Below are positions 29,330 through 47,147 of a DNA stretch of 64,000 bases, in pieces. The stretch spans positions 68,448,001-68,512,000 of the forward strand of contig OX597824.1 in assembly GCA_951406725.2 (NCBI GenBank). Reading direction: 5' to 3'. Positions within the stretch are counted from its first letter, which is position 1. Each line of letters opens with the position of its first letter. This DNA is from Octopus vulgaris (Eukaryota). The notes under the pieces were generated by a model, which was not told the DNA's origin, did no database searches, and worked only from the letters and a program-made list of their open reading frames with translations. The translations under genes were made by a program, and so were the position numbers.

Positions 29330-29919
29330 CATCGGAAAAACGCTATGAAAAATGACCGTTATACAAAGGGAAATTACGGTATTATTGACCGTTATTAAGA
29401 CAAAAGAGCTATTCGAATGACCGCCAAGTAAAGTAAGGGGGAAAAAAGCTCATAGTATTCGCGTAAGCGCGTCTGTTCATACCTTTGAGTGGATATGGTA
29501 GACAGAAACTGAAAGAAGCCTGTCGTACATATGTATATATATATATATAACGGGAAGCTTTATGAAAATAGACAAAAGACGAAGGCAGGTTTACGGAAAT
29601 AAACAAAAGACGAAGGCAGGTGGAATACAAACAAACAATTGTATTAGTATGGCGCCCAGGAATATAAATAAAACAAGTCTTTAACGTTTCGAGCCTATGC
29701 TCTTCAACAGAGAGATACACAGAGAAGAAACACAGAAAGAAGGATAGAAAAAAAATGCGTGCAGAGGCTAGTGAATCAACATGGGTGTGTGTATATGTTT
29801 GTCTCCCCCTCCCCAACATCGCTTGATGTTCATATTTACAGATATATTCCTCTATTTACATAATATCGAGGTCTCTTTCTTTCTTTTGTTATCTTACCGT
29901 TTTTATCAATATATATTAC

Positions 29920-30110
29920 CATGATAGATCGTTAGCCATTACACACACTTTTTTTTCTCTCCTTGTTTTTTTTTCTGTGTACCTTTCTGTAGAAGAGCGT
30001 AGGCTCGAAACGTAAAAGACTTTTTCTATTCCTTAGCGTTATACTAATACATCTGTTTGTTTTGTACACCACCTGTCTTCGTCTTTTGTTTTTTTTCGTA
30101 AACATTCCCT
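29920..30110 (+). mobile_element. ~190 bp dispersed element with A6U hammerhead-like core; copies at 1-95 (partial), 29550-29780(-), 33000-33170 and 46926-47105(-)
   Basis: Shared sequence CTGTNGAAGAGCRTAGGCTCGAAACGTWAAAGAC..CTAATAC..CACCTGTCTTCGTC; copies lie in or next to microsatellite tracts. Confidence 0.7.
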
Positions 30111-31626
30111 ATACATATACATTAATAGGTATGCGCGTTCGTAAGTGCACACCTATCACATATGTTGTGAATGTATGTATATATATGTCCGTGGGTAGAT
30201 AATTAATGTGTATATACTTTTGCATCTATGTTTTAGCTTGTTCAATCATTCAAATAAATAATCCCTATAAAGAAGGAAGTGGTTTCTACCGAAGGAACCA
30301 GGCTCATCGGTCGGAATTCAATACATCCAAAAATACTCGGGAAATATGCATGCATGTTATAAGCTGACAGATGGACAAATGCTTGCTAGCTCTGTATGTT
30401 TTGAGTTCAAATGCCACTGAGGTCGTCTGTGCCTTTTTTTCTTCCTTCCTTCCTTCCTCCTTCCTTCCTTTCTTTCTTTCATTCTTTCTTTCTTAAGAAC
30501 CAGTTGAACGCTGGAGTTGATGTAATCGACTTACAGGAGTGGCTATGTGGTAAGTAGCTTGCTTAACGGCCACATGGTTCCGGGTTCATTCCCACTGCGC
30601 GGTACCTTGGGCAAGTGTCTTCTACTATAGCCTCGGGCTGACTAAAGCCTTATGAGCGGATTTGGTAGATGAAAACTGAAAGAAGCCCATTGTATATATA
30701 TATATATATATATATATATATATAATTGTGTGTGTGTGTGTGTGTGTGTGTGTGTGTGTCTGTGTGTCTGTGTTGGTCCCTGAGATCGATGTAATCGACT
30801 TATCCCTATTCTTTGTAACAAACAAAATTTGGCATCAACAAGTGCATCGAATCGTATGCAAAGTTTTAGAAAATTTTTACTCATATTCACTGTTCTAATT
30901 ATCGAAAAAAAATTTCGGAGTATATCTTTTATCTTTTATTTGTTTCAGGCATTGGACTGCAGCCAAACTGGAGCACTGCCCTGAAGTGTCTAGTCGAACT
31001 AATCATCTGCAGTACTTACTTTTAAATCTGGTACTTATACTATCGCTAAGTTACGGAGACGTAAACAAACCAACACCGGTTGTCAAGCGGTAGTAGGAGC
31101 AAATACATACGCACATATGTATATATATATATATATATACATACGTACACATTGTAATGGAGGAAGACTCGAGGTACATGGATATTATGAATAATCGTAA
31201 ATAATATCTTACTAATGAATATGTGGGATGCAGAAACATATGTCGCGATACATTTATAAAGTCTATAAATTTTCATCCGCAAATCATTATCGTTAATACA
31301 CACACGCTCAAACACATACACACGCACATCATACATACATACATACATGCATACATACATGCATGCATGCATACATACATAAAGTTAATCCAAACATAAA
31401 AACACAGAGAGAAAACACAACAACGCGAGGACGTGGAACAAGTATAGTGTTATTGGACGCTCAGGAAAGGAAAAAATGGAGGAGGATTTAACGTTTCGAA
31501 CGGAGCTCTTCGTCAAAAACATAGGAAAAGGAAAGATCCAAGGAAGGGAAGACGGAGAAAGAAAATCGCCAACGATACATACATACATACATACATACAT
31601 ACATACATACATACATACATACATAC

Positions 31627-32483
31627 ATAGACAACCGATGCAGACTTTGTGGGATTGACACCCGAAGATATCACCCATACCATAAACAGTTGTCCGAAAA
31701 TGTCATTACAATATTATCTACCGATGAGACATGATATTATAGCTCGGACACTCGATAACGAAATCCGTCAGAAGGATAACCCCGAGGACAAAGAAATAAG
31801 AACCCACAGTATGGTAGGAGCCATAGCTGCTCATAATAAAAAAGGTGTACTGATGGAATGTCCTAGTGAAAACCTCAGTAAAATGTAAGCACAAAAGACC
31901 TGATGCAATGATTTGGGATTGAGATGACAAACTGTGTACAGTTGTGGAAATAAGCTTACCAGCGTATATTGACATAAAGCTGAAGATCAGTAAAAAAGAG
32001 AATACCTATGCTGAACTATTGAGAAATCTTCAGCTACTTTATCCAGATTACAAATTCAGGTTTATACCTGTAATTATTGGGACCCTGGGATATGCAATAC
32101 ACTGCCTAAATACCAATCTTGAGAAATAAGGCTTCTCAAAACCAGAAAGGAGAAGGCTGATTCGAAGACTACAGATCCAATCCATCACTGGAACAGTAAA
32201 ACTCTGTTAAACTTTCCAGAAGTTTATCATTTAAATATATATGAGCATGTCTAGATAAGCAGCTATATGCATGAGAATATATACATAAAACAAAACATAC
32301 AAATCTGCACATATACATACATACATACATACATACATACATACATACATACATACATACATACATACATACAAAAATACCCTGTTGTTGATGTTGAAAT
32401 TCCAATGAAGGAACCTTGAATCTAGGTTAGAAACCGGCTCTTTCTCTATTGGCAAGAAATCTTGAAATAAAATTGAACAATGG
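31627..32483 (+). mobile_element. 5'-truncated R4/Dong-like non-LTR retrotransposon (restriction-like endonuclease domain) in (CATA)n
   Basis: CRLC..EDITHTINSC (CCHC), RHD, KRPD, VEIS and IPVIIGTLG motifs with stops and frameshifts; (CATA)n at the left end and CATA-like repeats at the right end. Confidence 0.8.
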
Positions 32484-45335: not shown

Positions 45336-45568
45336 TTATTTCTTTATTACCAACAAGGGGCTAAACATAGAGGGGACAAACAATGACAGAGAAAAGGATT
45401 AAGTCGATTAGATCGACCCCAGTGCGTAACTGGAACTTAATTTATCGACCCCGAAAGGATGAAAGGCAAAGTCGACCTCGGTGGAATTTGAACTCAGAAC
45501 ATAACGGCAGACGAAATACCGCTAAGCATTTCGCCCAGTGCGCTAACGCTTCTGCCAGCTCGCCACCT
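45336..45568 (-). mobile_element. SINE family A inserted into a mariner relic
   Basis: Full monomer with 13-bp TSD TTTAAACGTCTTC. Confidence 0.85.
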
Positions 45569-45994
45569 TTTAAACGTCTTCATCCATCTGTGCACATCGC
45601 TTTTGTCAATGTGTCATCTCCTTAAACAACCTCGTATAGATGTGGGACAGCCTGCTTCCCTCCCTCCTTCGTCAAGAACTTATAGGAGCATGTGATATTG
45701 GCACTTGTTGAGTGCCTCACATTTCCTTACATAGTTGTAGAAAGGAAAAATAGCAGGAACACGAATCTCCAAACAAATAACAATAATAATTCATTTGGCC
45801 AAAATAAGCATTTCATCTCTGGACATCGGTAGCCTGGGGTTGGAAACAGCAGAGTCGGTTTAAATCACAATTGTTGAAGGCATTCTTCACAGCTCGCCAA
45901 GTCGTATTTCGCCTTTAATGGAGCTTGTCTGGTTCTCTCGGCAGCAGGAACCAAAAAGAAAGAATAGAGGTAAAAGCAAGCTGCTGCTGATTAC

Positions 45995-46077
45995 TGCGCA
46001 TGCGCATAAGGGACTTCCGGCAGGCCTTCCGGAAGACTAATACTTTCACATGCATAGATGAAAATCCCAAAATGGCG
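45995..46077. promoter_or_regulatory. Candidate housekeeping promoter: NRF1 palindrome, two ETS sites, YY1-like site
   Basis: TGCGCATGCGCA (45995-46006), ACTTCCGG (46013-46020), CTTCCGGAAG (46026-46035) and CAAAATGGCG (46068-46077) within 83 bp. Confidence 0.55.
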
Positions 46078-47147
46078 TCTGGAACCTGGCATCACTACAA
46101 ACTCAATAACAGCTCATTGCTTCTGCTTAGATCTAATTATTTACCTGCACGGAAGTGTTTATTTATACTAACCTGTACAGTTTGAATGCCCAATGTTATT
46201 TGATGAAAAAATATTATAGCCTGCTTTTGCATTACTTTCGATATAACCCATGTATGTATGTATGTATGTATGTGAGTTGTTTTGTTTGCATGTGTGTTGT
46301 ATGTATGTATGTATGGATGGATGGATGGATGCATGCATGCATGCATGTGCGAGAGTTGTTTTGTTTGCGTGTGTGAGTGTGTGTGTTGTATATTAAGTAA
46401 AATATTGAAATGTCATACATGTGGATAAATCTTAAATCATTTAATATCACTGCATATTATAAACATAGATTAAGCCTTGAGTTCTCTCAGAAGAACAGAA
46501 CACAGAATAGCTCAGCTAGTTTCACCTGGTCTTTGCCGGCTCATCACAATGTCTGCTCCATCCTGCTCATGGTACACATTATTCTATTTTTCATATGTGC
46601 CTTACAGCTAATGACGAAGAGTGATATGACTAATGAGCGTCGACTTCGCCTATTTGCATTTTGTTATATTCACTAACAGTATGGTGATGACCTAAATTAC
46701 GGTAACAGCATGAGCATGAATAAGTTTTATGGTTAATAAATACACTAACAGACATAATTACAATGTGTTTATACATGCATATCTAGGTGTGTGTATGTGT
46801 TGGTGTATGTACACACACACACTATCTATCTACATATATATGTATATATGTGTGTGTATGTACATATATAGAAATATATATGCATGTATATATATATATA
46901 TATATATATATATATATATATATATAGGGAGAGTTCACGAAAAAACAAAAGACAAAGACAGGTGGTGTAGAAAGCAAACAGATGTATAAGTATAACACTC
47001 GGGAATTGAAAAAGTTTTTAATGTTTCGAGCCTATGCTCTTCCACAGAAAGGAACACAGAAAGAAACAGGGAGAGAAAAAATGTGTGTAGTGGCTAGCGA
47101 TCTATGATGACGAATATATATATATATATATATATATATATATATAT

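Follow-up and report, generated by a model that had tools for sequence, protein, structure and literature searches.

A hammerhead motif with U in place of A6 in an abundant short repeat family of Octopus vulgaris

When a short repeat carries a hammerhead motif with U where the canonical core has A6, is the motif a dead ribozyme, a retained fold or a working variant? The question is raised by a 64,000-nt stretch of Octopus vulgaris DNA (NCBI GenBank assembly GCA_951406725.2, contig OX597824.1, positions 68,448,001 to 68,512,000, forward strand), here called the window and numbered from its first letter. The window is eukaryotic-looking DNA, rich in microsatellites and short repeats, and it contains a long interspersed nuclear element (LINE) open reading frame (ORF) with RVT_1 and zf-RVT domains. 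An earlier note on this DNA listed four heptamers, CTGTTGA (29710-29704, minus strand), CTGTAGA (29987-29993, plus), CTGTCGA (33048-33054, plus) and CTGTGGA (47047-47041, minus), each followed by A-GAGY-RTAG-GCTC-GAAAC-RTW, and we recovered all four with their downstream string at the places it gave. The heptamer pattern has 4 matches against 0.38 expected, and at least 4 matches were seen in 0 of 100 shuffles. The heptamers sit in four copies (c1 to c4) of one dispersed repeat family of ∼190 bp with pairwise identities of 74-86% (blastn), and therefore do not represent independent origins of the U6 motif. The repeat is short, very abundant and present in high copy number in an animal genome. 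The copies in the window and their relatives are:

29550..29783, minus strand: copy c1, 234 bp, with a ∼30-bp duplication near the 3' end, inserted at a (TA)n run
29920..30109, plus strand: copy c2, 190 bp, with AT/TA-repeat flanks
33007..33169, plus strand: copy c3, second subfamily, 5' boundary uncertain, (TACA)n behind it
46927..47113, minus strand: copy c4, (TA)n at both sides
31385..31572, minus strand: element c5, 188 bp, a distant relative of the U6 family, with (TACA)n-type flanks
1..94, plus strand: another c3-like copy, present as its 3' half; the window edge truncates it immediately past the hammerhead core, so that the core is out of view

The motif has a 4-bp stem I, the core C3-U4-G5-U6-N7-G8-A9, an extra A9a and a 4-bp stem II opening with G10.1-C11.1. 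These are followed by GAAA, a palindromic C15.2-G16.2 (an ACGU stem III) without loop 3, U16.1 and H17. The individual motifs read as follows (CpG, cytosine followed by guanine):

29983..30018, plus strand: c2, intact copy; stem I 29983-86/30015-18, C3 29987, U6 29990, A7 29991, A9a 29994, stem II 29995-98/30003-06, GAAA 30007-10, C15.2-G16.2 30011-12, H17 = A 30014
29679..29714, minus strand: c1; U6, N7 = U, H17 = U, one stem I mismatch
33044..33079, plus strand: c3; U6, N7 = C (CpG with G8), a U-G wobble in stem II, H17 = U, one stem I mismatch
47016..47051, minus strand: c4; U6, N7 = G, G16.2 changed to A (CpG), H17 = U, outer stem I pair lost
31486..31520, minus strand: c5; A6, C7, U3 (U3-G8 wobble), a G-U pair in stem II

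Position 6 is U in 4/4 copies, in place of the canonical A6. C3, U4, G5, G8, A9, G12, A13, A14 and A15.1-U16.1 are invariant in all four; A9a and G10.1-C11.1 are likewise present in 4/4, and the palindromic C15.2-G16.2 in 3/4, with a CpG-type change in c4. The CTTT/AAAG stem I that the earlier note gave for the best copy is indeed perfectly paired in the 29987 copy (c2), the only one of the four where this is so. Across c1 to c5, pairing was found in 20/20 stem II cells and 17/20 stem I cells. The copies keep to the NUH triplet rule (H17 is U in three and A in one), and the predicted cut in c2 falls at 30014/30015, 95 nt from each end of the copy.

Sequencing data from four public runs were aligned to 29965-30105 at 80% likeness, with differences listed from 2%; public runs under four organism labels contain parts of the c1-c2 stretch. 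The aligned contigs numbered 18,660, 8,749 and 4,605 in three public contig sets (X2, X8 and X19, respectively), of which X19 is presumably from RNA. At every listed place but 30034, c2 has the majority letter of these contigs (29981 is about evenly split), and it is therefore a young copy of the dominant subfamily. A 5' end is common to c1, c2 and c4, whereas c3 differs at both its 5' and 3' ends and diverges from the other copies by 21-27% downstream of the motif. The c3-type 5' sequence recurs as a loose end (before 29982) in 234, 164 and 51 contigs of X2, X8 and X19, and the c3 type is a second subfamily with U6 in its one readable copy. TA or TACA repeats terminate c1, c2, c3 and c5. All window copies are single units, and past the 3' end the contigs continue as (TA)n, so the copies are monomeric insertions in TA-type microsatellites. 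A search for a tRNA-derived head of the repeat found 0 tRNA genes. Copies c1 and c2 stand head-to-head on opposite strands, ∼135 bp apart, and are just 78% identical; since c1 also lies inside the (TA)n of another short repeat, the pair is probably the product of two insertions. Opposite-strand pairs of this kind are described among Penelope hammerheads (PMC4209133), and a transcript spanning c1 and c2 could form double-stranded RNA.

The contig data place U6 at the level of the family. The A6 share of contig depth was 0.74% in X2, 0.43% in X8 and 0.06% in X19; the last value comes from 15 contigs under an organism label unlike that of X2 and X8, and the lower share is not used as evidence. 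With U6 in more than 99% of contig depth in 3/3 sets and in 4/4 window copies, the letter is inherited and not the result of per-copy decay, which bears out the view of the earlier note that the change is family-wide. In the raw-read run X22, 5 reads with 2 starts among 12.9 million were all A6 and carried other changes; they look like one locus and show that A6 copies exist, though not how frequent these are. The relative c5 carries A6, and A6 is thus the ancestral state; we infer that A changed to U once, before the c2-like and c3-like subfamilies separated. The earlier note had correctly described this relative (31485-31520, minus strand) as keeping A6, but did not mention that it has U3 instead of C. 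In a simulation, 31-mers taken from c1, c3 and c4 spanned positions 6-7 in 0-9 placements, depending on the seed length, where c2 had 23. Diverged copies are thus under-counted, and the contig data describe mainly the c2-like subfamily, for U6 and A7 alike. Because a founder change passes to all descendants, fixation across the family does not by itself show activity.

Outside position 6, the core shows stronger conservation than the flanks do. Among the four copies, 0/12 invariant positions vary compared to 30/75 downstream columns (Fisher p = 0.004). In set X2, from C3 to U16.1 (29987-30013), 0/21 non-CpG positions have a variant at 2% or more, as against 12/47 downstream (p = 0.007), or 8/40 downstream without the T-run (p = 0.026); this comparison leaves out CpG sites and the private base of c2. 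Decay of the CpG at 29998/29999 is lopsided: in each of the three contig sets, changes of the loop II G outnumber those of the stem II C by a factor of 3.6-6. At the stem III CpG, decay is symmetric.

Position 7 was said by the earlier note to take all four bases freely. Four letters are indeed found in four copies, but such a column is only moderately unusual (p = 0.002 if the 10 motif changes are placed uniformly, 0.009 at the flank rate), and four-state columns also occur in the flanks (3/143). "Freely" does not hold: A7 is fixed in the dominant young subfamily, and no non-A letter reaches 2% in any run. The variation at N7 lies between older or divergent copies, and "changed between lineages" describes it better. 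In addition, the C7 of c3 and c5 sits in a CpG, so that the T7 of c1 can be ordinary decay. CpG sites aside, the one large variant within the motif concerns H17, with ∼79% A and ∼21% U (20-22%) in the contigs; both letters are allowed, and G was never listed.

What U6 does to cleavage was estimated from related variants and from folding. The natural A6C hammerhead of phage Bcep176 cuts at <0.1 per min (PMC3088659), and A6C is described as far slower in Mg than in Mn, with good activity kept in Mn2+ (PMC7151607). All pairs of mutations were scanned in a type III hammerhead, where changes in the CUGA turn, alone or combined, are reported as low in activity and unrescued, except for the C-G swap (PMC9901934). 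Canonical minimal hammerheads are themselves described as weak and in need of dimers (PMC4209133; PMC6765202). In the folding prediction the probability of a G5-C15.2 pair is 0.49 with U6 and 0.05 with A6, since U4-G5-U6 pairs with the ACG of stem III, and the competing U6 fold is predicted to gain only 0.2 kcal/mol. When two copies were cofolded, the hammerhead dimer was not the minimum-energy fold with either letter at position 6, and the result therefore says nothing on dimers. The U6 motif is likely a weakened ribozyme, slow or non-cutting. The predicted cut lies mid-element, yet the copies were inserted whole, so the template must have been uncut or rejoined. For an Anolis Penelope element, hammerhead cutting is reported to depend on the protein that the element encodes, whereas insertion in vitro still occurs with catalytic mutants (PMC11167929).

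We favor, at a probability of roughly 0.45, an attenuated Penelope-type hammerhead that is kept as a fold in a non-autonomous family. The repeat would likely be a non-autonomous derivative of a Penelope-like pseudo-long terminal repeat (pseudo-LTR), travelling as the passenger of a Penelope-like element; insertion in microsatellites is compatible with a partner of the Penelope type, and microsatellite targeting is described for the Neptune and Naiad Penelope-like clades (PMC8557442). Read-through RNA would be copied whole by a Penelope-like reverse transcriptase (RT)/endonuclease supplied in trans. U6 would have lowered cutting, for which the short unit may pay nothing or by which it may be protected: fast cutting would halve the template, so that reduced cutting would be tolerable or protective. 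The fold would stay under selection in the source copies, probably for recognition by the partner protein, and slow protein-assisted cutting is perhaps retained. N7 and H17, as the free positions, would be where one source lineage came to differ from another.

Several points weigh against this reading. Raw divergence of the motif (0.11-0.17) is only modestly under that of the downstream flank (0.14-0.27), and invariance extends to nominally free positions (loop II and A9a, and in the young subfamily also N7); the block may thus be conserved for a reason other than the fold. G8 and G12 are kept, though recognition of a fold does not obviously depend on them. One stem I pair is broken in 3/4 copies (c1, c3 and c4), and covariation of the pairs was not significant (87/500 shuffles were as good). 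The copies, with n = 4, were noticed for their intact core, which is a source of ascertainment, and contig depth over-weights consensus words while it under-counts diverged copies. The stretch 30069-30105 is also without variant rows, perhaps due to low sensitivity near the ends. No Penelope-like ORF was recognized beside the copies among 83 ORFs of at least 100 amino acids (aa), 3 peptides of which were domain-scanned, and the literature searched yielded no published measurement of A6U itself.

It is possible, although we consider it less likely, that the ribozyme is simply dead: one founder A6U change killed it, the repeat spread as an element that needs none, and what looks like conservation comes from ascertainment, from the little time elapsed, or from some constraint other than the fold. 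A founder change would become fixed across the family without selection, the young subfamily has A7 and loop II fixed to the same degree as U6, stem I or III is broken in 3/4 copies, and monomer copies have no tandem partner for a dimer in cis. Moreover, Naiad elements are reported to proliferate without canonical hammerheads (PMC8557442). A dead motif is harder to reconcile with U6 being common to subfamilies with different ends and 21-27% downstream divergence while the invariant positions are unchanged, and with non-CpG core changes falling on N7 and H17. The kept G8, G12, C3-G8, A15.1-U16.1 and NUH rule across subfamilies, together with the four states at N7 (p about 0.002-0.01), would be expected of a working non-canonical ribozyme, that is, a natural functional A6U hammerhead spread through several subfamilies, in which U6 is tolerated or compensated and useful cutting is rescued by a dimer, a Penelope protein or Mn2+. 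The activity of natural A6C in Mn2+ (PMC7151607) and the protein assistance of a Penelope hammerhead (PMC11167929) point the same way. We regard such activity as less likely still: position-6 mutants of another hammerhead are slow with no second-site rescue (PMC9901934), even canonical minimal hammerheads are described as barely active (PMC4209133), U6 adds a predicted off-fold, and cutting would halve a unit that inserts whole.

In another register, a U would be inserted after G5 and the next letter would be position 6. That letter is A in c2 and across the young subfamily, where A7 dominates, and single-base core insertions are known (PMC3088659). This register would place A8 opposite C3, lose the usual extra base 9a and leave c1, c3 and c4 with no A6; failing in 3/4 copies, it leaves the A6U numbering of the earlier note as the right one. 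In addition, c5 aligns gap-free with an A at the U position, and this alignment, together with the four-state N7, led us to reject the inserted U, which we hold to be very improbable. Between the others, the attenuated, fold-retaining hammerhead remains our preferred reading.

The window holds further elements around the repeat:

48627-48672, minus strand: canonical Penelope-type minimal hammerhead of an unrelated family, in an element at about 48560-48730, by a (TAA)n run
31631-32230, plus strand: broken LINE 3' fragment with a zinc-knuckle-like and a restriction-like endonuclease-like motif, between (TACA)n runs, on the strand opposite c5
20759-26494, minus strand: near-complete LINE with a 626-aa ORF1-like frame and an RT frame open over 877 aa, the latter matching RVT_1 and zf-RVT
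33225-33400, 42318-42415, 18860-18952 and 47926-47999: long palindromic hairpin elements resembling miniature inverted-repeat transposable elements

The motif at 48627-48672 (minus strand) has A6, an extra A9a, a 6-bp stem II, the ACGU palindrome and a 5-bp stem I, and it is a natural positive control. We take the LINE at 20759-26494 to be L1/Tx1-like and its frame at 23592-24236 to be endonuclease-like. The fragment at 31631-32230 had no Pfam match and is presumably Dong/R4-like; a link between the repeat and this neighboring fragment was ruled out, as the fragment is on the opposite strand with a microsatellite between. The octopus repeat annotation lists recently active Penelope-like and Dong-R4 families (PMC13282606). 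Several of the palindromic hairpins draw spurious microRNA matches in Rfam, and a tandem repeat with a ∼54-bp unit occupies 47230-47570, just past copy c4. A U3-G8 core, as in c5, is listed for a Saccoglossus Penelope family (PMC4209133, Fig. S3). Different core changes in related families, U3 in c5 and U6 here, may hint at repeated attenuation, c5 being a single copy.

The persistence in Penelope-like elements of minimal hammerheads with scarcely any cutting in vitro is presented as an open question (PMC4209133; PMC8557442; PMC11167929). The U6 family is a natural experiment on it: a position-6 change expected to harm catalysis has been fixed while the remaining motif is kept. If U6 cuts, the rule for the hammerhead core needs an exception, and descriptor searches based on CUGANGA miss whole families. 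If it does not cut and the fold is selected, the motif would be a natural pseudo-ribozyme and evidence for such motifs as structural signals; if it is simply dead, the repeat is an ordinary non-autonomous one.

How does the U6 motif compare with known hammerheads? With Rfam covariance models, no hammerhead was found among the 150 of 209 whole-window matches listed, nor on c1-c2. The models also miss the canonical motif at 48627-48672, and are thus blind to minimal hammerheads, which makes the result uninformative. Pattern scans of sequence collections gave 0 and then 1 match in metagenomes, 1 in prokaryote genomes and 0 in viral sequences; the two matches (L001 and L002) were rejected as chance, the rest of the motif being absent. 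Neither a natural A6U hammerhead nor a description of the U6 repeat family turned up in the literature searched, where the single listing with "A6U" concerned a twister, and sequence look-ups were likewise negative. Lunse and colleagues reportedly describe a large collection of Penelope hammerheads, and the supplement of that work may bear on the novelty of the family. The U6 motif is real and, as a core variant, apparently undescribed.

The closest likeness is to the minimal hammerheads of Penelope elements (Cervera and De la Pena, 2014; PMC4209133). As described there, these share the U-rich 5' context, the 4-bp stem I, the extra base between 9 and 10.1, G10.1-C11.1, the palindromic 15.2-16.2 without loop 3, and the scattered occurrence as single copies; in Fig. 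S3, stem II of the Acropora Neptune example is comparable, with 4 bp and a loop of 4 nt. However, all 56 representatives in that figure have A6, which the search descriptor demanded, whereas the octopus family has U6 and, failing A6, is not assigned as a canonical member. Penelope minimal hammerheads lie in the pseudo-LTR of an element with RT and a GIY-YIG endonuclease; next to the U6 copies, no such ORF was recognized among the 83 considered above.

Animal non-LTR retrozymes (PMC7229834; bioRxiv 10.64898/2026.07.22.740005) are likewise short non-coding repeats with a type I hammerhead, thought in these sources to derive from Penelope pseudo-LTRs. They form head-to-tail tandem arrays and circular RNA, in contrast to the single units in microsatellites and the minimal altered core found here; identity as a tandem retrozyme was ruled out for the window copies, all of which are single units. 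The architecture is also that reported for the small stem-III-deficient hammerheads (Lunse, Weinberg and Breaker, RNA Biol 14:1499), for which a dimer mechanism is proposed (PMC6765202). Among natural core variants described so far (A6C of Bcep176, an A6a insertion and U3-A8; PMC3088659, PMC7151607), A6C likewise replaces the letter at position 6 and leaves the remaining core as it is. It comes from one phage sequence, with activity measured as low in Mg and better in Mn, whereas A6U is fixed in a high-copy repeat of an animal genome.

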